The notes under the pieces are model-generated. The model did not search any database. It saw only the letters and a list, made by a program, of their open reading frames with translations, and was not told the origin of the DNA. Below, piece after piece: positions 3,803 to 37,172 of a stretch of DNA of 64,000 bases. The stretch is from a virus (taxonomy: Duplodnaviria; Caudoviricetes), in IMG/VR virus record IMGVR_UViG_3300037183_000082, positions 16,635 to 80,634 of that record, one strand, 5' to 3'. Made by a program: the position numbers and the translations under genes. How positions within the stretch are numbered: the stretch's first letter is position 1; each line of letters opens with the position of its first letter.

Positions 3803-5561
3803 GCCACGTCCGAAGGTCGCAACGCACGAAGGTGTTCCGCACGCACAGATTCAGGACGCGCAGACCAAGTGGGAGCACGTCGTGGTTCGCATGCACCGCC
3901 GCGTTGCAGGCGGGAAGCTCGCCGCGCTCGGCAACAAGCAAATGACGCTCGGTGAACTGAGCGACATCGAAAACTACGTCAGGGAGTGTGCGGGCGGCGG
4001 CATTTTTCGGATCGAACCGCGCAACCCGCAGGATCTGCTTTCGTACGCAGACCCGATCCCGCCCTTCACCATCGAGATTGATGGGCCGCCCAAGCCCTCC
4101 AACGCGTTCGAGCACACCGGCAGTCAGATGCCGTTCGCGGGGGGCATCGCGCGCATGTCGAACCCGAGCGGTATGCACATCCCGCCCGAAGCGCTCGCGC
4201 AGATCCCATCCTGGGTGCGACCCGAGCATCGCGCCGCGTGGCTTGCGGCATCAGACCCTGTCGGTGTCGCCGCCGCGAACGGTTTGCCGATGCCTGCGTA
4301 TGACCCGCACATGCCGCGCGCGGCAGCCCCGGCCGCCGCGTTCTCCTCCGATCAGCTCGCCGTCAAACAGCTCGACGAGCTGCGTGCCGAGGTCGCAGCC
4401 GACCGTGCTCGCGCTGCGCAACGCGAGAAGGCTCTCACCGAGGAGCTGGAGCGTTCGCGCAAGGACATCGAGAAGCACAAGGACGAGGAGCGCAGCCTCC
4501 GCGAGAAGGGCGAGCGTGAAGTCCTCAAGCTGCAGCTCGAATCGCTGCGCGCGGAGCTGCAGGTGATTCGCGCGACACCACCGCCAGCTCCGCCCCCTGC
4601 GCGACCGGCGATTCCTGTGGAAGCGTGGATCGGCCTGGTCGGCGCGCTCGCACCCGTGCTCACAGCTGTCGTGACGAGCGGCTCGACGCGACAGGCATCC
4701 ATGGCCGAGCAGCAGGCCAAGGTCGCCGAGCTGCAGATGGCAGGTCTGAGCACGGTGCTCGGTGCCGCCAACAACAAGAAATCCGACCTCTCAGGACTCG
4801 CCGAGACGCTGCTCAAAGTCGCGCCGCTCGCGGTCCCGCTGTTCACCGAGTTTTTCAAGAACAAGAGCCCCGCTGCGCAGGCCAACCTGTTCAGCACGCT
4901 CATGGAAAACAACCTGACGACGCTGAGCACGATGGGCAGCTTCCTGCAGAGCATGCTCGAAATGCAGGGCGGCGACCCGTGGTGGAGGCCGATGGTTGAA
5001 AACGGCATCCAAGGTGTCGTCGCTGCCGCGCAGCAATACTCAGAGATGGCCGTGAAGCAGAACGGCGGGACTGTCGCGAACGAGCAGGCCAAGCCACCCG
5101 CACGTCAGGCGAGCCCCGGCACGACTATGGCCACCATGATCGTAAACAACCCGCAGTTCCCAAAGGAGCTGAAAAACGGCGCGTGGGTCGAGGTCATCGC
5201 AGCGCTGCATGACAAGGCCCCGCCGCCCAACGTCGCCGAGTTTGTGACCGAGGAGCTGGTCGCCATGCGCGACAAGAACGCGCTACCCGAGATCTTCGCG
5301 CAGGTGTTCGAGATGCCAGAGCAAGCTGTTGCGCAGCTCATCGCATTTCTACCCATCTACAAGGCCGATCGTCCCTACGCCGATGCTGTGATCCAAGCCA
5401 TCGGCCAGGCCGTGCGCGCCACGACCGTGGTCGAAACGAAGGGTGAACCTGCCGGCGACGATGACGACGGCGACGATGACGAGCCTGCAGCGCGCCCGCC
5501 GGCTGTGCCTTTCAACCTCAACGCAGCACGTGGCAATGCGCGTGTCCCGGTGCCGGCGTGA
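3795..5561 (+). CDS. large coiled-coil hypothetical protein (588 aa)
   Basis: long ORF with central coiled coil, hydrophobic segment and acidic tail. Confidence 0.8.
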   Translation: MSEPRPKVATHEGVPHAQIQDAQTKWEHVVVRMHRRVAGGKLAALGNKQMTLGELSDIENYVRECAGGGIFRIEPRNPQDLLSYADPIPPFTIEIDGPPKPSNAFEHTGSQMPFAGGIARMSNPSGMHIPPEALAQIPSWVRPEHRAAWLAASDPVGVAAANGLPMPAYDPHMPRAAAPAAAFSSDQLAVKQLDELRAEVAADRARAAQREKALTEELERSRKDIEKHKDEERSLREKGEREVLKLQLESLRAELQVIRATPPPAPPPARPAIPVEAWIGLVGALAPVLTAVVTSGSTRQASMAEQQAKVAELQMAGLSTVLGAANNKKSDLSGLAETLLKVAPLAVPLFTEFFKNKSPAAQANLFSTLMENNLTTLSTMGSFLQSMLEMQGGDPWWRPMVENGIQGVVAAAQQYSEMAVKQNGGTVANEQAKPPARQASPGTTMATMIVNNPQFPKELKNGAWVEVIAALHDKAPPPNVAEFVTEELVAMRDKNALPEIFAQVFEMPEQAVAQLIAFLPIYKADRPYADAVIQAIGQAVRATTVVETKGEPAGDDDDGDDDEPAARPPAVPFNLNAARGNARVPVPA

Positions 5562-6133: not shown

Positions 6134-7801
6134 ATGACATCGCTGCGTTACCGTCTCGCGTCCAGCGCACGCTGGGCCTCGCTTATTTGGAGCGAGGAGC
6201 GGGGCCACTCCCAAGAGTTTCTTTTGGCGTGCGCAGCGGCACTTCCCATCCCCGGGGTGCGTGAGCACCCAAAGGCGATCGATGTTCCCGTAACGGCTTT
6301 CATGCTGCCGGAAGTACATCGGTTGTTTGCGGCAGCTCGGGTCGACATCCCTACCCCACGTTCGGATGTCGACCCGGGCAAGCTGTGGTCACCACAGCAA
6401 AAGCCCTTTGATCACCAAGTGGAAGGTGCGCGCTTCATCGTGAACGCGGGCTCTGCACTTGTCTGCGACGAAATGGGAGTCGGTAAGACTCGCACTGCGA
6501 TTCAGGCTGCGCAGTCTGCTCGACTTAGCTGGGGCGGACCTGCTGTCATTGTTGCACCCAAGTTCACCCGCGCGACTTGGTTGCGCGAGCTGCTCGCGAC
6601 AGGCGCCATCGAAAACCCCACCCAGTTCTGCGCGCTCGAATCGCGCGACCTCGGAGATAGCTCGTTTCGCGCCGGCTGCCACTACTACTTCGTGCACTAC
6701 GACGTCGTTTCGACGTGGTGGACACGCCTGCAGTCGTCTGAGCGCCCGACGGTGACCATCGTCGATGAGGCGCACTGGATCAAGAACGGCCGGGCCAAGC
6801 GATCCAAGGGCGCAGATCTCGCAACTGCCGGCACTCACATGCGGATTTTGCTCACGGGCACGCCGCTCGTGAACAGCCCTGCAGACCTCTGGTACCCGCT
6901 TCAATGCGTCACAGGAGCATCCACTTGGGGCAGTCCGCTCGACTTCAGGGTTCGCTACAACGGTGCGATACGTACGTCGTATGGTCATAAGGACCTAGGG
7001 CCAACCTACACGAACGAGCTGCGTCTGCGCATGGCGCCTTGGTACCTGCGCCGCACGACTGAACAGGCCGGCCTGCAGCTCCCTGCGCTCACGCGCACCG
7101 CAGTCGAGTGTGAGATGTCGCGCGCGCTTGCTCGCGAGCACAGCGGCATTCTCGGCAAGGTCGATCCGGCAGCCATCGTCACCGCGATCTTGGAAAACCG
7201 GATGGGGACCGAGACGCTCAAGATGCTCAATCGGCTGCGCCAGATCACGTCCGCGGCCAAGCTCGGCGACACCGCCGAGTACGTGAGCAACATCCTCGAC
7301 CAGGGCGACGCCGCGGTGGTGTTCGTCTGGCAGCCCGAAACCGCCCGCAAGCTTCGCGCGCGCATGGCCGAGCCTGACGCGCACGCTGAAATCACAGGTG
7401 ACCAGGACCAAGGCACGCGCGACGCGTTGATCGCAGCGTTCCAGGCCGGCGCGGGGCCCGCCGCTCTGTTCTGCACCTACGGCACCGTGCGCGAGGGTGT
7501 GACGCTGCATCGCGCGCGCCATGTTGTGCACCACGACCTCGACTGGACAGCCGTCACCATCCAGCAGGCTGAAAAGCGCATTCACCGCATCGGCCAGAAC
7601 CGCGCTTGCACAGCCACTTGGATGGTCGCGCGCAACTCGATGGACACCATTTTCGCGGAGGTTCTGCGCGCCAAGCTCGACGCCGCACAGCAGGTGTTCG
7701 GCGACGCGAACCCCTTCGAGGCATCTCTCGACACGATTTCGGTCGGCATGTCCCTGCAGGACAAGATGCGCGCCGCGATCGAGGAATGGCGGGCGTGGTG
7801 A
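6134..7801 (+). CDS. SNF2-family (SF2) helicase/ATPase
   Basis: DEMGVGKT Walker A, DEAH, LTGTP, QAEKRIHRIGQ motifs. Confidence 0.93.
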   Translation: MTSLRYRLASSARWASLIWSEERGHSQEFLLACAAALPIPGVREHPKAIDVPVTAFMLPEVHRLFAAARVDIPTPRSDVDPGKLWSPQQKPFDHQVEGARFIVNAGSALVCDEMGVGKTRTAIQAAQSARLSWGGPAVIVAPKFTRATWLRELLATGAIENPTQFCALESRDLGDSSFRAGCHYYFVHYDVVSTWWTRLQSSERPTVTIVDEAHWIKNGRAKRSKGADLATAGTHMRILLTGTPLVNSPADLWYPLQCVTGASTWGSPLDFRVRYNGAIRTSYGHKDLGPTYTNELRLRMAPWYLRRTTEQAGLQLPALTRTAVECEMSRALAREHSGILGKVDPAAIVTAILENRMGTETLKMLNRLRQITSAAKLGDTAEYVSNILDQGDAAVVFVWQPETARKLRARMAEPDAHAEITGDQDQGTRDALIAAFQAGAGPAALFCTYGTVREGVTLHRARHVVHHDLDWTAVTIQQAEKRIHRIGQNRACTATWMVARNSMDTIFAEVLRAKLDAAQQVFGDANPFEASLDTISVGMSLQDKMRAAIEEWRAW

Positions 7802-8817
7802 TCCTCGACATCCTATACGACCCGATGCCCGCTGCGAAGCGCCCGACCGAGCGGCGTGCGCTAGGCGAGGTCGGCATTCCGAACGAGGGGGCCTCGCCCA
7901 CGGGCAGCTCGTTCTACAAGACGTTGCTCGCGTGCCCGCGGGAGTTTGCGCTCGCGCACGTCGAGGGCATCCGGCCTGTGATCGAGCGCGACGAGCTGTC
8001 GATCGGGATCATCTTCCACCACGCGCTCATGGTGTACTACCGCGCGATCTACGAGCACCAACAGCGGTGCAAACCGGCCACGCGCTGTCCTGTCGGCAAT
8101 GAAAAGCTAGCGCCCGAGTGGCAGCACTTCTTCTGGGGCAACCAGCGCGAGGCTGGCCAGGCTGCGTTTGCGTCCGTGCTGCAGCTCGCAGCAGAGCCTG
8201 GCTACACGGAGATCTACGAGACCGTCGAGCGCTGCCTTGAAGCCTATTTCGAGACCTATTGGCGCACCGACCGCTGGATTGTCGTCGCGGTCGAGGAGAC
8301 GATCATTCGCAACGGGTTGCCGACGCCATGGAGCGCACGCCTCGATCTATTCATCCACGACATGAAAGACGACGGCCTGTGGATCTGCGAGCACAAGACC
8401 GCGAAGTTCATCAACGCCGACCTCATCGACAACTATGAGATGGACATTCAGATCCTCGGCCAAAAGTGGCTCGTGCAGCGTTGTGTTGATCTCACCGCGT
8501 ACCCGCACTTCAAGGGCGTGCTCATCAACATCGTGAGCAAGGCGAAAACACCCAAGCTCGTGCGCACCCAGGTAAGCCCGAGCCCCGCGCACCTGCGCGA
8601 GTTCGAGAACACGCTCGCGAGCCTTCCCGTGCAGCGCAAGGTCTATGAGCGCCTCGGTTGGCCGAAGTTCCTCGGCCACTGCTCGGGCTACGCGCGCGGC
8701 TACTCGCGGTGTCAATTCTATTCGCTTTGCCATGACTACCCGGAAGTCACGCCCGCGCAGTGGCGCGGCTTCGATTTGCCGGAGGAGTTTGAACGTAAGG
8801 AGGTTGCTGTGCCCTAG
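7798..8817 (+). CDS. PD-(D/E)XK nuclease (Cas4/RecB-like phage exonuclease)
   Basis: ARLDL..EHKT catalytic motifs, Q..G.Y-like motif, N-terminal Cys plus C-terminal C..C...C; GTGA coupling. Confidence 0.85.
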   Translation: MILDILYDPMPAAKRPTERRALGEVGIPNEGASPTGSSFYKTLLACPREFALAHVEGIRPVIERDELSIGIIFHHALMVYYRAIYEHQQRCKPATRCPVGNEKLAPEWQHFFWGNQREAGQAAFASVLQLAAEPGYTEIYETVERCLEAYFETYWRTDRWIVVAVEETIIRNGLPTPWSARLDLFIHDMKDDGLWICEHKTAKFINADLIDNYEMDIQILGQKWLVQRCVDLTAYPHFKGVLINIVSKAKTPKLVRTQVSPSPAHLREFENTLASLPVQRKVYERLGWPKFLGHCSGYARGYSRCQFYSLCHDYPEVTPAQWRGFDLPEEFERKEVAVP

Positions 8818-9001
8818 TGCTTTGTACGGCACGGTTTTGCGCCGCACGGTACTGCACCGTCAGGTAGAAAGATGGATTCAAAAAGTTTCTGCCGCGGTTC
8901 TGTCAATCGTGGTTCGGTAGCGTGGGGTTCTGTGGAGTTAGTTTATGCAGCGTGATGTCTCCTAGCGTCATGTTTGGCTCGGTTCGGCTCTAGTTCGGTT
9001 C
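8818..9001 (+). repeat. 5-nt-periodic NGY-NN array (two tracts), candidate guide RNA(s) for the adjacent RAMP protein
   Basis: tract 1 (8818-8867): 10/10 units start NGY; tract 2 (8896-8990): 16/19 units, plus 2 more after a 1-nt slip; non-coding. Confidence 0.85.
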
Positions 9002-9029
9002 GACAAGACGAAGAAAAGGGTGGTTTTCA

Positions 9030-9698
9030 ATGCAAAGAACAAGAATCAGTTTCGAGGGTGTGAGTCCGCTTCTACAGAATCGGATGTCAGAGGAACAGCT
9101 CATGGCGCTCTTTACGAAAGAGCCGAGCACGCGGCGCAAGTTCGAGGCGCCCAAGGACATTCGCGAGACGGCGCGAAGCAAAGTACACATGACCGAGGCA
9201 GGACTGCCCTACGTTCCGGCAGAGATGTTCATGTCGTGCTGCATCATCGCAGGTCGCTTTATCAAACTCGACGGCAAGCGGCAGATGTCGACAGCTAACT
9301 CGACGCTCCTGCCCGGCTTTCTCTCAGTCGAAGAGACGTTCTTCTACCTCGTGGACCCGCGACAGGGCGGCCCGGCCGAGTGGGCAACAGCTACGCAAAC
9401 AGCCCCGGCGCAGCCAAAACACCCAGCTGAGTGGGAATCCGACATTCGACGTGGTGTGAGCAACAACGCAGGTGGAAGCGCCGTTGCCATCGTACGCCCC
9501 CGCTTTGATCGCTGGGGTTTCACGGTGACGTGCATGCTCGACACCGATCAGCTCAGTGAAGCAACTTTCCGCGAGCTGTTCGATATTGCTGGCTCGCGCG
9601 TCGGGATCGGCGACTTCCGTCCGATGCGCAAAGGCATTTACGGTCGTTTCAAGGTCACAGGCTGGCAGCGCATGGACGAGCTGAAGTCCGCATCATGA
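9030..9698 (+). CDS. stand-alone RAMP / Cas7-like protein (Vipr-like)
   Basis: ISFEGVSPLL beta1, PYVPAE motif, hairpin ending in RPRF..W, C-terminal G-rich loop AGSRVGIGDFRPMRKGIYGRF. Confidence 0.8.
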   Translation: MQRTRISFEGVSPLLQNRMSEEQLMALFTKEPSTRRKFEAPKDIRETARSKVHMTEAGLPYVPAEMFMSCCIIAGRFIKLDGKRQMSTANSTLLPGFLSVEETFFYLVDPRQGGPAEWATATQTAPAQPKHPAEWESDIRRGVSNNAGGSAVAIVRPRFDRWGFTVTCMLDTDQLSEATFRELFDIAGSRVGIGDFRPMRKGIYGRFKVTGWQRMDELKSAS

Positions 9699-10449: not shown

Positions 10450-11025
10450 ATGCCAGAGATTGAATTCAACGCAACGCAAGGAACCGTGTTCACGCCGCTG
10501 CCCAAGGGCTCCTACACGGCGCTGATCGAAAACATCGAGTTCAGCAAGACCAAGGAAAAGAACAACCCTCAGATGTGTCTCATCATGCGGGTGTCGGGTG
10601 GTGAGTACGACGGTCGCGAAGTTCGCGACTGGATGGTCACCGGCGGCGAGAACGCGCACAAGTCGGGCTGGCGCATCGCGAACCTGCTCGAAGCAACCAT
10701 CCCAGGCGAGTACGACGAGATCGAGACCGGGGAGCTGAACGAGAAGGGCAAGCCCCTTTACCGCTACAAGTTCAACACGGACCACCTGATCGGGGTCTCG
10801 GTGAGCTTCAAGGCGACCATCGAGGAAGACAACAAGGGCGAGGACCGCAACCAGTTCCGCTACATCGCCAAGACTGGCGCCACGGAGGCTGCCAAGGCTT
10901 CCGACGCCCAGACCCAGGCCGGCTTGCCCGCTGCGGTTGCGCAAACGCAGCCCGCACAAGCCGCGCCCGCCACACAGGCTGCGGCGCCTGCCACTTCGGG
11001 CCGTCGCGCTCGGCTGTCGGCCTAA
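10450..11025 (+). CDS. DUF669-family (SSB-like) protein
   Basis: FTPLPKGSY..IE pattern, Ala/Gln-rich tail, standard position after AAA_24. Confidence 0.75.
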   Translation: MPEIEFNATQGTVFTPLPKGSYTALIENIEFSKTKEKNNPQMCLIMRVSGGEYDGREVRDWMVTGGENAHKSGWRIANLLEATIPGEYDEIETGELNEKGKPLYRYKFNTDHLIGVSVSFKATIEEDNKGEDRNQFRYIAKTGATEAAKASDAQTQAGLPAAVAQTQPAQAAPATQAAAPATSGRRARLSA

Positions 11026-11777: not shown

Positions 11778-11959
11778 GATCGATATGGCTATTGCCCGGG
11801 GTGGCGCGCGTGTTCAAGACGAAGCGTGCGGCTTTGGCTTTCAAGCTTGCGTGGAAGATCCGCGGCGAGCCGTCCCAATATCTACGTGCTCCGCGATTTA
11901 TCAAGGATCCGCCCGCGCGCGTCGTGCGCCCGAAATATAGAAAGCCGGCGCCGGTATGA
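11774..11959 (+). CDS. small basic hypothetical protein
   Basis: GTGA/ATGA coupling on both sides. Confidence 0.5.
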   Translation: MRSIWLLPGVARVFKTKRAALAFKLAWKIRGEPSQYLRAPRFIKDPPARVVRPKYRKPAPV

Positions 11960-12477
11960 GCAACGAGCACATGCACGGCACCAACGACACGTGGTGCACG
12001 CCAGAGCCGATCTGGGGCCCGCTCGTCGAGCACCTAGGGCCGATCTCACTCGATCCCATGACGAATCCGCGCAGCAAGGTGCCTGCGAACGAGCGCTGGA
12101 CTGACTGGGACGGCAACGTTGCACGGTTCGGGCTGATCAAGCGCAACGCCTACGAGCATTCGTGGGATAGCTACCCGTTCGTGTTCGTAAACGGGCCGTG
12201 GTCTGTGATGGCGCCATGGTGCAAGCAAGCCGCCGAGCGCGTGCATTTCAACCACACGGTGCTCCTTGTGCCTGTGCGCCCGACGGGCGGCGCTTGGCAG
12301 AAGTGGATCTTTCCGAACTTCGCGGTGCTCTGGCTCAACTTCCGCATCCAGTTCGACGGCGCCAAGGATCCTATCCCAGGCCACTGCGCGCTCTGCTACC
12401 GCGGCGATTCGCTGCGAGTATTCAAGCGGGCTTTCAGGGGCAAAGGCACGATCACCTGCCAAAGCGAGATGCTCTGA
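11956..12477 (+). CDS. phage Dam-like DNA N6-adenine methyltransferase (variant motif NGPW)
   Basis: DTWCTP, LDP, FVNGPWS, LVPVR..WQ, RIQF motifs. Confidence 0.8.
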   Translation: MSNEHMHGTNDTWCTPEPIWGPLVEHLGPISLDPMTNPRSKVPANERWTDWDGNVARFGLIKRNAYEHSWDSYPFVFVNGPWSVMAPWCKQAAERVHFNHTVLLVPVRPTGGAWQKWIFPNFAVLWLNFRIQFDGAKDPIPGHCALCYRGDSLRVFKRAFRGKGTITCQSEML

Positions 12478-12956: not shown

Positions 12957-13354
12957 CACCCGTCCAACTTGAGAGCCCTTACGCAGGCCACGTCCATCGC
13001 AACAAGGCCTACCTACAGCTCTGCATCCGCGATTGCTTTGAGCGCGGCGAGGCGCCATTCGCGTCGCACCAGCTCTATGTGGATGCGCTCGACGACGACA
13101 TCGCGATCGAGCGAAAGCAGGGCATCGAAGCGGGCTTGATCTGGGGCAAGTTCGCCGAACGTACGGTGGTCTACACAGACTTCGGGATTTCGAGTGGCAT
13201 GAAGCACGGAATCCTTGCGGCCGAGAAGCTTCGACGCCCGTGCATTTTTCGCACGCTGAAAGACTTCGACCGCGTCACGTTCTACACGGCGACTGACGAG
13301 CTGCAAGAGACAGACTGGCACGAGCTGCTCACACGCTGCCGGAGCGTGCGATGA
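12953..13354 (+). CDS. conserved phage protein (nucleoside deoxyribosyltransferase-like fold)
   Basis: ESPYAG..RN..Y..C.RD...GEAPFASH..Y; VVYTDFGISSGM..GI. Confidence 0.65.
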   Translation: MTPVQLESPYAGHVHRNKAYLQLCIRDCFERGEAPFASHQLYVDALDDDIAIERKQGIEAGLIWGKFAERTVVYTDFGISSGMKHGILAAEKLRRPCIFRTLKDFDRVTFYTATDELQETDWHELLTRCRSVR

Positions 13355-16300
13355 GCCCGAACCGCCCGACGCGTTTTCCGATCTACACCGAGGCGCACGC
13401 CAACTGCAGCAAGTGCGAGCTGCAACCAGCCTGCGAGGACGGCAAGGTCGTACAGGCCTACCAGCCGGCCAGCGACGCGCCTTTCAACGGTATCATGATC
13501 GTGGGCGAGGGTCCCGGGCATCACGAGGTCATCCAGGGCCGCCCGTTCGTGGGACCTTCCGGGCGCTTGCTCCGTGCGATTCTCAAGTCGCTCGGGGCTG
13601 ATCTCGACGCTTGCTACATCACCAACGCAACGTTGTGCCGACCGCCTATCACGGCATCGGATGACAAACGCTCGTTCATGCAGAAGTTCCCCCGCGCGGT
13701 GCACAGCTGCCTGCCGCGCCTGGAGCTTGAGATCACTGCTGTCCGCCCGCGCGTGATCCTCGCGCTCGGGGCACAAGCCCTGGCTGCGCTCACGGGCTAC
13801 GAGGAGCACTACACGAAGCTTCTGCCCGCGCCGCCGTGCGAGACGTGTAAGGGCGGCCATGTGCTGAAAGACGGTGGGGAGACGCCGCGCAGGGTGGTCG
13901 GCGTGCAGTGCTCCAAAGGTGAGTGCAAGCACCGCATTCTCTTGCCGCCCCAGTTCGAGGGAAAGAAGGTCAAAGGGCTCGATCTGCCCGATATCCTGCC
14001 CACGGATTGCCCCAAGTGCGGCGCGACCTTGCAGCGGCTCACGGTGCGACAGATCCCGTGCCCGACCTGCGGCGGCCTCAAGCGCGTCGAGACGCCACTT
14101 GTGAACTTTCGGTGGGACTACCAGCTCGGCGAGGTCGCAGGGGCTGTCATCGATGCGAGCAAGCACGGGTGGGAGACGTGTGGCGTGCGGTACGTGATCG
14201 CGACCTACCACCCCTCGTTCTTGCTTCGACCTCCGCCCAGCTCAGGCACGGGCGAGGACAAGGCCATGGGCGGCCAGTACGCGGCGCCTTGCGTTCAGAA
14301 GCACATGAAAAAGTCGCTGCGTCTACTCACCGAGGACGCGGACTGGTCCACAGGTTTTGAGGTCACAGACGAGTCGGACCACACAGACGCTGCGGCGCAC
14401 TTGCTCGACTACATCTACGGCGACCCGGCAGTCACCGAGTTCACATGCGATATCGAGAGCGAGGGCTGGGGCTCCGAATACGTCTGCCAGGTGTGCGAGA
14501 CGAAGTCTGGGATCATCCGCACCGCACCACCGACCGAGCTGTCCGCCGAGCTGCACCATTGCGAGACGTGCACAACCGCCGCGAACGCAGTTTTGCGGGC
14601 GGAGAACAAGGAAGAAACGGGCCCGCTGTTCACGCAGCACGTGCCGATCGTAAAAGAGCTGGACGCCCGCAAGATCGCCGAGGTGTCGAAGATCAAGATC
14701 CTGGGGTTCGCGAGCCGTAAGCGTGGCTATTCGTTGGTCACAGACACGCGCACGCTCGACCCTGACAATACAAGCGACCCGCTCTATCAGGCCATCGTCA
14801 AGGTGCTCACCGACACGACCTTGCGCATCTGCTTTCACCACGGCAACTACGACGTGCCGGCGCTGTACAAGCTCTGGGGCATTGAGGTCAAGAACTACAC
14901 AGACGACACGCTGATCCTGCACCACGATCTGTACCCGGACGAAAAGCACTCGCTGTCGCACGTCGCATTCGAGTTTACCGATGTCCACGCGTGGAAGCCG
15001 CCCAAGAAACTTCACAACCGACTCGCGCACGAGTCGTTCGAGGAAGAGTGCGCGTACAACGCACGCGACACGATGCTCACGGACGACTCGCTCCAACAGA
15101 TGAAGCTCAAGCTTGCCCCGAAGCACCTCGATAAGGTCTACGCCATCGACATGCAGCTGCAGCAGCAGGCTGTTGAGATGTGGCGCAACGGGATGTACGT
15201 CGACAAAGACAACGCCATCCGCATCGGCCAGGAGGCAGTCGACCGCGAGCTACGCCTGCAAGCCGAAATGCGCAAGCTGCTCAAGTGGGACAACTTCAAC
15301 CCGCGTTCTGCCACGCAGCTGGCTGAGGCGCTGTTCGATCGCTTTGGCTACACGCCCTCGAAGATGACTGAGGGTGGCGCGCGCTCGACCGCGAAAGAGG
15401 TCGTGCTGCGGCTCACAGACAGCCCCTTTAAGCGCCTCGTGCTCGACCACAAGGATGCCGTGGCCACGCTGGCTAACTTCTTCGAGGTGGTAGACAACCG
15501 CGCCTACCCGGGGCGCAGCCTGCGCATCTGGAACGACCAGCGCATCCGCGCGACGTGGAAAGCGTACGGCGCACGCACGGGGCGTTTCTCGTCCAATCCC
15601 AACTTTCAAAACTGGAAGGCGTGGCTCAAGGCACTCGTGACCTGCGCGCCAGGCCGCAAGATCGTGGGTGCCGATTACGACCAGCTGGAGCTGCGCATTC
15701 TTGCTGCCCTGAGCGGTGATCCTGTGCTCATGGAAAAGTGTCTGAACGCCGACGAGAACGACAAGCTCAACCCGGACAAGGACCCGCACAGCTACGTGGC
15801 GTTTTTCGCGTTCGGCAAGCTGTTCACGGATCTAGACAAGAACGACCCGGCGCACGACAAAAAGAACGAGCGCTGCAAGTGCCAGAAGTGCGAGCGCAAG
15901 GCCCTGCGCGATATCTGCAAGCGTGTGATCTACGGCATGAACTACGGCGCGGGCGACGAGACCGTGCTCGAAGCCATCTATTCAGGCGGGTACAACGGCC
16001 CGCCCATCTCGCTCGACATGATCGGCCGCGTCCGCAAGGCCATCTACACCGCGTTCAGTGGGATCAAGGCCTACCAGGAAAAGCTCTACACCGACGCCGT
16101 CAAGAACAAGGCGATCTTTTCGCCGCTGCTCGGCCGCCGTCGGATCTTCCCGCTCGGCGATGTGCCGTTCACCGAGATCCTCAACTTCCCAATCCAGTGT
16201 CTTACCGGCGCGACGCGCGTTCTCACTGATCGCGGCTACCAGACGCTCGAAAGTCTCAACGCGCTCACGCAAGCACATACGGGCAGCGAACAGGTGCAAG

Positions 16301-17625
16301 CACGGGTGCTCTCGAAGGGCGCGGAGCAAGTTTGGCGTGTGACGCTAGACAACGGGCAGCAAATCGAAACGAACGAGGGTCACTATTTGCTCGGCACGAA
16401 CGGCTGGCTCGCGACGGGTGAGCTGCAGCCTGACACACTGATCGCGCAACCACTTGCACGAGAGCAGCCAACGCGCCGTGACATGACGGCAGGTTTCGGG
16501 CGGGACCCGGACACGTTCTACTGGCTCGGCTACTACGTCGGCAACGGTTCTTGGGATACCGACGATGCGATCAAATTCGCGTTCGGTTCGCGTGTGAAGC
16601 GGCAACACCATAGTGAATACGCCACCAAGTTCCTGGAGTGGGCGCGCTTGCACGAGCTTGCACCGCAAAAGCCGCAGATCGAGCTAAACCTTACTTGCGT
16701 GACGTTGCAGAACCACGCGGCGCGCGAACTGTTCACAAGTCTCGGCGTTATGCCCGGGGCTGGCGCGCATCAAAAGCGGCTTCCGGAAGCTGCGTGGGCG
16801 GGCTCGATTGCGGAGCGCAAAGCCTTCTTGGTCGGGCTGCTCGATGCCGACGGTTCGCTTGCGACAGACCCGCCCAACATCACGTTGTGCAACCGCGCTT
16901 TGCTTCAGGACGTGCAGCTCCTACTGCGGACGGTCGGGATTCCGAGCCGCCTGTACGGGCCCTATGTCGCGGATCGTGCGGGTCACCTGGCGTGGCGTCT
17001 CACGATTCCAGGGACGCTGCTCACACGACTCGGGTACGGGCAAGCGCAGCGTGTGCGGTACCCGAATGACGTGTCACTGGATCCGACCTCTATTGCGGAG
17101 TTTCTGGATACGTTCCCCAAGAATCCGTTCAGTTTTTCGACACAGCAAAGCATGTACATGCTCTGGCGGCGGATCTCAGAGGGTGGTTTCACGAACCCCC
17201 ACACGCTTTTACGCATGTGGGAGGCGCTCGACGCAACACCGACCCAACCGATTTACGCTTTCCATGCGGTGCGCAGCGTCGAGCGTTTGGATCGCGCGGC
17301 GCCGATGTTCACGCTTCACGTTGACCACCCACTCCATCGTTACGACAGCGCTGGCGTGATCAGCAAAAACTCAGGCGGCGCAGACATCATGAACCAGCGC
17401 AATCTTATCTTCGGTGGCGAGGTGCGCAGCATCGATCCCACTGCGATGTACATCGCCCAGGTGCACGACGCCGTCTACTACGAAGTCGACGAGCAGCGCG
17501 CGCCCCAGGTCGCAGACCGTATGACCGAGGTCCTCACCTGGGATACCGCGATGTACGAAGGCGGCCCCGTGATGCACTTCAGTGCGCAGGCGTCCATTGG
17601 CGACACCTGGAAGGCGGCAGCATGA
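13351..17625 (+). CDS. polA: family A DNA polymerase with N-terminal family-4 UDG-like domain, 3'-5' exonuclease and an intein
   Basis: VGEGPG/RPFVGPSG/TYHP (UDG); DIES, FHHGNYD, YNARD (exo); TGRFSS.PNFQN, ADYDQLELR, K..IYGMNYG, QVHD (PolA). Confidence 0.95.
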   Translation: MSPNRPTRFPIYTEAHANCSKCELQPACEDGKVVQAYQPASDAPFNGIMIVGEGPGHHEVIQGRPFVGPSGRLLRAILKSLGADLDACYITNATLCRPPITASDDKRSFMQKFPRAVHSCLPRLELEITAVRPRVILALGAQALAALTGYEEHYTKLLPAPPCETCKGGHVLKDGGETPRRVVGVQCSKGECKHRILLPPQFEGKKVKGLDLPDILPTDCPKCGATLQRLTVRQIPCPTCGGLKRVETPLVNFRWDYQLGEVAGAVIDASKHGWETCGVRYVIATYHPSFLLRPPPSSGTGEDKAMGGQYAAPCVQKHMKKSLRLLTEDADWSTGFEVTDESDHTDAAAHLLDYIYGDPAVTEFTCDIESEGWGSEYVCQVCETKSGIIRTAPPTELSAELHHCETCTTAANAVLRAENKEETGPLFTQHVPIVKELDARKIAEVSKIKILGFASRKRGYSLVTDTRTLDPDNTSDPLYQAIVKVLTDTTLRICFHHGNYDVPALYKLWGIEVKNYTDDTLILHHDLYPDEKHSLSHVAFEFTDVHAWKPPKKLHNRLAHESFEEECAYNARDTMLTDDSLQQMKLKLAPKHLDKVYAIDMQLQQQAVEMWRNGMYVDKDNAIRIGQEAVDRELRLQAEMRKLLKWDNFNPRSATQLAEALFDRFGYTPSKMTEGGARSTAKEVVLRLTDSPFKRLVLDHKDAVATLANFFEVVDNRAYPGRSLRIWNDQRIRATWKAYGARTGRFSSNPNFQNWKAWLKALVTCAPGRKIVGADYDQLELRILAALSGDPVLMEKCLNADENDKLNPDKDPHSYVAFFAFGKLFTDLDKNDPAHDKKNERCKCQKCERKALRDICKRVIYGMNYGAGDETVLEAIYSGGYNGPPISLDMIGRVRKAIYTAFSGIKAYQEKLYTDAVKNKAIFSPLLGRRRIFPLGDVPFTEILNFPIQCLTGATRVLTDRGYQTLESLNALTQAHTGSEQVQARVLSKGAEQVWRVTLDNGQQIETNEGHYLLGTNGWLATGELQPDTLIAQPLAREQPTRRDMTAGFGRDPDTFYWLGYYVGNGSWDTDDAIKFAFGSRVKRQHHSEYATKFLEWARLHELAPQKPQIELNLTCVTLQNHAARELFTSLGVMPGAGAHQKRLPEAAWAGSIAERKAFLVGLLDADGSLATDPPNITLCNRALLQDVQLLLRTVGIPSRLYGPYVADRAGHLAWRLTIPGTLLTRLGYGQAQRVRYPNDVSLDPTSIAEFLDTFPKNPFSFSTQQSMYMLWRRISEGGFTNPHTLLRMWEALDATPTQPIYAFHAVRSVERLDRAAPMFTLHVDHPLHRYDSAGVISKNSGGADIMNQRNLIFGGEVRSIDPTAMYIAQVHDAVYYEVDEQRAPQVADRMTEVLTWDTAMYEGGPVMHFSAQASIGDTWKAAA
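16198..17370 (+). mobile_element. intein with LAGLIDADG homing endonuclease (391 aa)
   Basis: junctions FPIQ|CLTG...ISKN|S; WLGYYVGNGS and LVGLLDADGS motifs. Confidence 0.92.
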
Positions 17626-36474: not shown

Positions 36475-37172
36475 CCGCGGCGCGTCGTGCGCGAGGCTGC
36501 GAACAGCTTGCCGGGTTTCTTCCATTCGGGGTAGCCATCGGCGAATTGTTGTGAGACCTCGCCGTTGACCATGGTGATCACGTAGCCCCCTGCGTCCATG
36601 GTGAAGGGGGCTTTCAGCTTGCCCATGTAGTCGAAGCGCGCGCCGTGGGGTGGCTGCGCGTCGAACCAGGACGGGAGCAGGAAGTTCGACACGTGCACGG
36701 GGTGCGCGTTGAGCGCGGGCGTGATGGCATAGCCGTCGTTCTCGACCGCATCGCCCAGCTCCATGGCGTACATGGTGCCGTCGGCGGCCTGGCCCCAGTA
36801 GTTGATCGTGGGGTCGCCCCACATTTCGAGCACCTCATGCGAGAGGCACGCAGCGATGCCATTCAGGCCCAGGATGGTGCCGCCGTTGTCGAGGATCGTC
36901 TTGGCGAACACCCGGGCGTAGGGCTGCCCCGTCGGCGTCTCATCGTGGTAGCCGAGTGCGCCGGCCTGGTCGGCATCGTCGAACATGAACACTTGCCAGG
37001 CACCGGGGATCGTGTGCCTGGAGTCGGCGCAGAAGGTCACCGAGGCCGGCAGGCGATTCCACGCCGGGGCTGCGTGCTTCGCGACTTGCACCGAGCACGC
37101 GTTGCACATCGCCGCGAGCAGATCTTCATGCCCAGCGAGCGCCTTCGACTTGTTCGACACCTGGATTTGCAT
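36471..37172 (-). CDS. putative Zn-binding metallopeptidase-like protein (HExxE..DP)
   Basis: GALGYH, SHEVLEMWGDP, E.GD.VE, VSNF..P.WF. Confidence 0.6.
   Translation of the reverse strand: MQIQVSNKSKALAGHEDLLAAMCNACSVQVAKHAAPAWNRLPASVTFCADSRHTIPGAWQVFMFDDADQAGALGYHDETPTGQPYARVFAKTILDNGGTILGLNGIAACLSHEVLEMWGDPTINYWGQAADGTMYAMELGDAVENDGYAITPALNAHPVHVSNFLLPSWFDAQPPHGARFDYMGKLKAPFTMDAGGYVITMVNGEVSQQFADGYPEWKKPGKLFAASRTTRRG

Follow-up and report, generated by a model that had tools for sequence, protein, structure and literature searches.

A probable minimal VIPR locus, without a vap gene, in a high-G+C environmental phage

Introduction

The question raised by this locus is whether a single small gene and the five-nucleotide periodicity of the non-coding DNA in front of it together form an RNA-guided system and, if so, whether that system is of a kind already known. 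The locus lies in a phage record of 80,634 bp (IMG/VR; 63.9% G+C, with 127-bp direct terminal repeats), and the stretch of 64,000 nucleotides that was analysed is called the window here; positions are those of the window unless stated otherwise. An initial annotation of the window, made from its letters alone, had proposed a stand-alone Cas7/RAMP-like gene with an adjacent guide array and had noted a resemblance to the VIPR architecture of phages.

VIPR (Viral Interference Programmable Repeat) systems were reported in April 2026, and the Vipr protein was proposed to be an ancestral RAMP (bioRxiv 10.64898/2026.04.26.720920,.720927). Their guides, the vrRNAs, consist of 9-16 GGY/NN units followed by a tail; the NN dinucleotides read DNA with one skipped base, and the effect is to silence transcription in competing phages, satellites and prophages (bioRxiv 10.64898/2026.04.26.720920,.720927). 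The published classification comprises 667 systems; there are seven types, the alternative repeat consensuses NNNGG, YNNNG and NNNNG occur, and internal degeneracy of the vrRNAs is frequent (bioRxiv 10.64898/2026.04.26.720920,.720927). Six vap genes are named for the seven types, most of which have one (bioRxiv 10.64898/2026.04.26.720920,.720927), so a vap gene is not required for membership. In Escherichia phage SUSP1, the vrRNAs are discrete species of ~100 nt that guide DNA binding, and cryo-EM revealed one protomer per repeat and an R-loop triplex, with R138, D177, W178 and R179 contacting G1, G2 and Y3 (bioRxiv 10.64898/2026.04.26.720920,.720927). The accepted threshold for a target is an NN match of at least 80%, and no self-targeting was seen in the clades checked (bioRxiv 10.64898/2026.04.26.720920,.720927). 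A third preprint concerns VIPR in phage-satellite competition.

Results

The gene that we designate vipr and the periodic DNA before it are set among replication and recombination genes, as follows.

6134-7801: SNF2 helicase gene, in the replication/recombination block
ending at 8817: PD-(D/E)XK nuclease gene, in the same block
between the nuclease and vipr genes: gap of 212 nt, holding both 5-nt tracts
8818-8867, plus strand: putative vrRNA guide tract 1, directly after the nuclease stop codon; 10/10 units NGY
8868-8895, plus strand: spacer of 28 nt, non-periodic and A/T-richer, separating the tracts
8896-8990, plus strand: putative vrRNA guide tract 2; 19 units, 16/19 NGY
8991-9029, plus strand: leader of 39 nt, from tract 2 to the vipr start codon
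9030-9698, plus strand: vipr ORF, 222 aa
9695-10435: gene for a Sak4-like AAA_24 ATPase, its start overlapping the vipr stop (ATGA)
10450-11025: gene for a DUF669 single-strand-binding protein, downstream of the Sak4-like gene

A family-A DNA polymerase gene lies further along in the same block. The absence of CRISPR repeats, Cas1 and Cas2, initially noted for the window, extends to the whole 80.6-kb genome, in which we found no spaced repeats and no match to Cas1, Cas2 or Pfam RAMP. There is also no vap gene beside vipr, whose neighbours here are the replication and recombination genes. The only other contig of a close relative, L082, turned out to be the identical phage, from which no guide comparison can be drawn, and a search of viral contigs with the Sak4 protein returned no relatives of the phage.

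Two further features of this region were observed in passing. The polymerase ORF (13351-17625, plus strand; 1424 aa) has an apparent in-frame insertion that starts with Cys and contains an LLDADGS-type motif, and it looks like an intein with a homing endonuclease. At 11956-12477 (plus strand), a gene call in the identical contig L082 matches Pfam PF05869 (Dam methyltransferase).

The 222-aa ORF is real, and every motif first quoted for it is present. Its product is a RAMP with one RRM, in which a thumb hairpin surrounds RPRF (156-159) and the G-loop reads GSRVGIGDFRP (188-198). Met25 is the start chosen by gene callers, giving 198 aa; the 222-aa start is supported because the first, N-terminal beta strand is conserved across the family. 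The product has no match in Pfam, NCBIfam or PADLOC, its sole match in PHROGs is phrog_4652, of unknown function, and ~229 homologs, all unnamed, occur in metagenomes. Searched as a single protein against the sequences of solved structures (phmmer), it matched PDB 36pp, the "SUSP1 Vipr protein", with an E-value of 4.5e-4 over its C-terminal 87 residues only; the full-length match needs a profile, and one built from 32 homologs aligned from end to end with the same chain (E 1.8e-7; profile positions 4-191, chain residues 4-189).

According to the profile alignment, the SUSP1 contact residues R138 of the thumb and D177, W178 and R179 of the G-loop correspond here to R156, D195, F196 and R197, of which R156, F196 and R197 are invariant in 75/75 members of the clade and D195 is found in 73/75. 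The residue equivalent to SUSP1 H17, which contacts G1, is N17 in this protein and in 70/75 clade members. Given N17 and F196, the details of triplet recognition may differ from those in SUSP1.

The fold agrees with the sequence match. An AlphaFold model (pLDDT 88.5, pTM 0.85) returned from Foldseek only Cas7-family proteins as top matches (Csm3, type VII Cas7 and Cmr; best E 3.3e-6), which bears out the RAMP/Cas7 fold that had been proposed, and VIA-align gave Z 11.0 to Csm3 with 167 residues aligned. With the chain that the VIPR authors had used as their own query at a cut-off of Z 6, 6ifn_E, the score was Z 10.1. Because the fold library runs to 2026-04-08 and no VIPR entry is among the matches, the prominence of Csm3 is no argument against Vipr. 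The protein shares with class 1 Cas7/Csm3 (6ifn_E, 9g9g_I) the RRM core, thumb hairpin and glycine-rich loop (Z 10-11), and, as a class, one subunit per fixed number of guide nucleotides with pairing broken by the thumb. It differs in its low identity (~10-16%), in a periodicity of 5 rather than 6 nt and in a guide that would be read discontinuously; in contrast to class 1 CRISPR systems, the locus has no apparent Cas5, Cas6, Cas10 or Cas8 partners and no CRISPR repeats or adaptation genes.

The gap upstream of vipr had been described as one array of 5-nt NGY/NN units; the periodicity holds locally, but there are two tracts out of phase rather than a single array. Tract 1, whose phase can be followed back to 8808, in the last part of the nuclease gene, carries the NN string TT AC AC TT GC AC AC AC CA AG. 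Tract 2 is offset from it by 3 nt and contains three degenerate units (ATC at 8906, GTT at 8941 and CCT at 8961); it may represent a single long vrRNA or a pair of shorter ones. As the tracts are out of phase with each other, a Fourier test at period 5 over the whole gap is unremarkable (p = 0.125, not significant). Counted in phase, this is the only place in 2 x 64 kb (both strands) with windows of at least 9/10 NGY units, and with p(NGY) = 0.18 the expected number of runs in the window is 0.0045 for 10/10 units and 8e-5 for at least 16/19. The entropies of the five positions over the 29 units are 1.79, 0.57, 0.89, 1.89 and 1.90 bits, with G2 kept in 26/29 units and Y3 in 29/29; this profile indicates that G2 and Y3 are fixed, that N4 and N5 are free, being near maximal, and that position 1 is almost free, though A is scarce there. 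G occupies position 1 in 12/29 units (0.41).

The gap as a whole has a G+C content of 51%, compared with 64% for the genome. A search of it for a sigma-70-like promoter or a terminator consensus found neither. No significant fold follows either tract that could serve as a structured 3' tail, there is no Rfam match, and no pseudoknot like that of SUSP1 emerged. A weak hairpin at 8863-8893 (-8.7 kcal/mol, z -1.5) is not significant, and the leader (8991-9029) likewise has no significant fold (z +1.1). The spacer (8868-8895) could be the 3' tail of a first vrRNA or a processing or promoter region. At the junction of tract 2 with the leader stands GGCTCTAG, which resembles the ends of arrays in the relatives L006 and L013 and may, by that likeness, represent a short tail. 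The ATG of vipr is preceded at ~7 nt by a ribosome-binding site, AAGGGTGG. We also observed that AGAAAGATGGATTCA, just after tract 1 (8865-8880), resembles the region of the ribosome-binding site before vipr, AGAAAAGGGTGGTTTTCA (9012-9029); the likeness may go back to the duplication of a module of array and leader, or be coincidental.

If the gene and the tracts belong together, relatives of the gene should be accompanied by similar tracts, and this is what was observed: among 80 IMG/VR loci with homologs at 28-50% identity, 78 carry NGY/GGY 5-nt tracts on the strand of the gene, directly upstream of it, downstream of it or both. These tracts often form several blocks totalling hundreds of bases, and in most homologs arrays are found downstream of the gene as well, whereas here they are upstream only. 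Across the clade, individual loci have G at position 1 in a fraction of their units between 0.05 and 1.0, and several relatives (e.g., L004, L010, L013, L014 and L041) are as relaxed at this position as the present locus. The relaxed NGY triplet had initially been taken as a possible sign of a divergent subtype, an idea that we abandon, since relaxed position 1 is common in the clade and YNNNG repeats have already been published; N-G-Y-N-N is YNNNG in another register. One large Vipr clade thus spans the range from strict GGY to an almost free position 1 with the known contact residues fixed. No single residue explains the relaxation of G1, for the best column associations follow clade structure only.

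The surroundings of the gene vary. It stands after Sak4 and DUF669 genes in one locus and between terminase and portal genes in others; in L002 the AAA_24 and DUF669 genes are upstream. Across the 80 loci, none of the protein families beside the gene turns up repeatedly, which makes the gene with its arrays the conserved, mobile unit, without a vap partner. Sak4 and the nuclease were considered for the part of a vap partner and rejected, synteny being found in only 1/80 loci (at the tblastn level). A search for hammerhead ribozymes between arrays, at Rfam gathering scores in 18 loci and the window, found none. In L006, an identical GCGAGCC-GAAA-GGCTCGC hairpin follows each array block (~4686-4712 and ~4908-4934); it may be a vrRNA tail or processing signal peculiar to the clade, and the window has no equivalent.

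The clade includes cultured phages. Mycobacterium phage Saal and 17 related records encode a homolog, 26% identical, that is annotated as a "hypothetical protein"; in Saal this is gp51, and the group includes Cheoctovirus relatives (Zizzle, ByChance, BobaPhett and others), with the identity extending over 94% of the query. As in the present locus, 5-nt arrays lie directly upstream of the gene: in Saal (L087; NC_023580.1 ~36570-36830), ~250 nt of GGC/NN arrays with 1-nt phase slips precede gp51, next to the immunity repressor and antirepressor genes. Saal differs in its strict GGC triplet, its 1-nt-staggered arrays, its gene neighbourhood and its lifestyle, being a temperate actinophage with a cultured host.

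We searched for targets of the tracts under the xNN rule, scanning the large collections for exact matches only. In the phage's own genome, the best matches (15/20 and 23/38) were within the null of shuffled guides, so that no self-target stood above it, and no target above the null was found in the 80 related loci, their vipr genes included. Exact patterns for tract 1 and for the two halves of tract 2 had 0 matches in viral contigs, and tract 1 had 0 exact matches in metagenome contigs. In genome contigs tract 1 matched 2 times, once in a Promethearchaeota MAG and once in a Bacteroidales MAG; both matches were set aside, ~1 being expected by chance and neither organism being a plausible host. 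The units at 8911-8960 had 4 matches in metagenome contigs, which form 2 independent groups: one falls within a YcaO/ABC-transporter cluster, in an ORF of 307 aa whose wobble positions coincide with the skip bases, and the other is intergenic, after a hemA-like gene. We regard these as chance, as the flanking units match at chance level and the contexts are non-mobile; like those of tract 1, they are about as many as chance would give. A shared peptide, SSLYYP(D/E)PL, was rejected as a sign of homology, because a pattern that fixes two bases in three imposes it. Since an NN match of at least 80% is accepted for VIPR and the scans were exact, finding no target is no evidence against function.

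Discussion

The locus is very probably a minimal phage-borne VIPR system, in which a single vipr gene follows two vrRNA tracts on its own strand and no vap gene is present. On sequence evidence, it agrees with every VIPR criterion that can be tested at that level: the protein, its contact residues, the tracts, which at 10 and 19 units exceed the minimum of four, and the linkage of gene and tracts. The resemblance to VIPR noted at the outset was therefore correct, given the homology to SUSP1 Vipr, the fold and the linkage. The kind of system is already published, and the locus is a further example of it rather than a new system.

The nearest characterized relative for comparison is the type II system of SUSP1 (Vipr, vap1 and four vrRNAs; PDB 36pp). 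Both have a single-RRM RAMP of ~200 aa with a thumb arginine and a G-loop triad of Asp, an aromatic residue and Arg; both have 5-nt tracts of a fixed triplet plus NN beside the gene and on its strand; and both are phage-borne, with no CRISPR array or cas genes. The present locus differs in lacking a vap gene, in its triplet (NGY here, GGY in SUSP1), in two residues (H17 replaced by N17 and W178 by F196), in the position of its arrays, upstream only, and in having no recognisable pseudoknot tail. Published VIPR systems without a vap are likewise minimal, consisting of the gene and arrays.

By homology with the SUSP1 system, we propose the following course of events. The tracts would be transcribed, probably with or from within the replication-gene operon, as suggested by the shared operon strand and the lack of a consensus promoter or terminator, or else from a phage promoter that escapes recognition within the A/T-richer gap, and would then be trimmed. 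Vipr protomers would polymerise along the RNA, one per 5-nt unit, giving filaments of ~10 and up to 19 protomers, in which each protomer would sequester N-G-Y through the thumb arginine, the Asp-aromatic-Arg triad of the G-loop and helix 1. The NN dinucleotides would be presented to double-stranded DNA and read as xNN, with one base in three skipped. The arrangement first proposed for this locus, in which each subunit takes up one unit, hides its triplet and offers NN for pairing, agrees with the SUSP1 cryo-EM and would apply here by homology. The gene to which the filament binds would be silenced at the level of transcription, and it would most likely belong to a competing phage, satellite or prophage; because no nuclease or helicase partner is adjacent, repression rather than cleavage is to be expected. 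Position 1 might itself help to specify the target, only G and Y being flipped out and three bases being read per unit, which would differ from the xNN code. Such a reading is prompted by the variability of position 1, close to that of NN, and by N17 and F196 in place of SUSP1 H17 and W178; we consider it unlikely.

Of the explanations that do without working guides, the one that survives best is that the protein gene is intact and the guides are vestigial, so that relaxed and degenerate arrays direct nothing useful. The entropy of 1.79 bits at position 1, the three units of tract 2 that depart from NGY and the fact that AC makes up half of the dinucleotides of tract 1 could all be read as decay. 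However, frequent degeneracy of vrRNAs and YNNNG arrays belong to the published systems, and position 1 is just as relaxed in many clade members whose arrays are long. Within the tracts, moreover, G2 is kept in 26/29 units and Y3 in all 29, the contact residues of the protein are intact, and real targets at an NN match of at least 80% would be missed by exact searches. We therefore give decay of the guides little credence.

Alternatively, the tracts could be a cis-acting leader of the vipr mRNA, through which the protein controls its own translation or that of the Sak4-like and single-strand-binding proteins, without guides acting in trans. In favour of this, only 39 nt lie between the end of tract 2 and the start codon of vipr, on one and the same strand, the search of the gap revealed no promoter or terminator of its own, and vipr is translationally coupled to the Sak4-like gene. 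Such a leader would not explain the arrays that most homologs also have downstream of the gene, often in several blocks; the equivalents in SUSP1 are discrete RNAs of ~100 nt that guide DNA binding, and the Sak4/nuclease neighbourhood is not conserved. A role in cis alone is thus very improbable. That an unrelated, small, beta-rich phage protein happens to stand beside a gap of odd composition, as the lack of Pfam, NCBIfam and PADLOC matches and the non-significant Fourier test of the whole gap might suggest, has next to no probability, being already refuted by the full-length profile match to the solved Vipr, the Csm3 fold (Z 11), the run statistics of the tracts and the linkage of gene and tract in 78/80 homologous loci.

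A minimal VIPR system thus being the preferred reading, the locus adds a complete example without a vap gene, from a high-G+C environmental phage, to a family only months old, and it leaves the current picture of RNA-guided systems unchanged. Its clade is useful for asking which residues read G1. The Mycobacterium phages (Saal and relatives), in which the genes are still called "hypothetical", are tractable cultured members of the clade.

Two minor observations may be added. In Saal, the annotated start of gp51 (36823) is well upstream of the start of homology and near the arrays. In the present phage's own genome, outside the window, nine consecutive in-phase NGY/NN units lie on the minus strand (G000:C1:4937-4981; L086:1438-1482), within overlapping long ORFs; with ~0.01 such runs expected in the genome, they may be due to chance or may form a solo guide-like tract.
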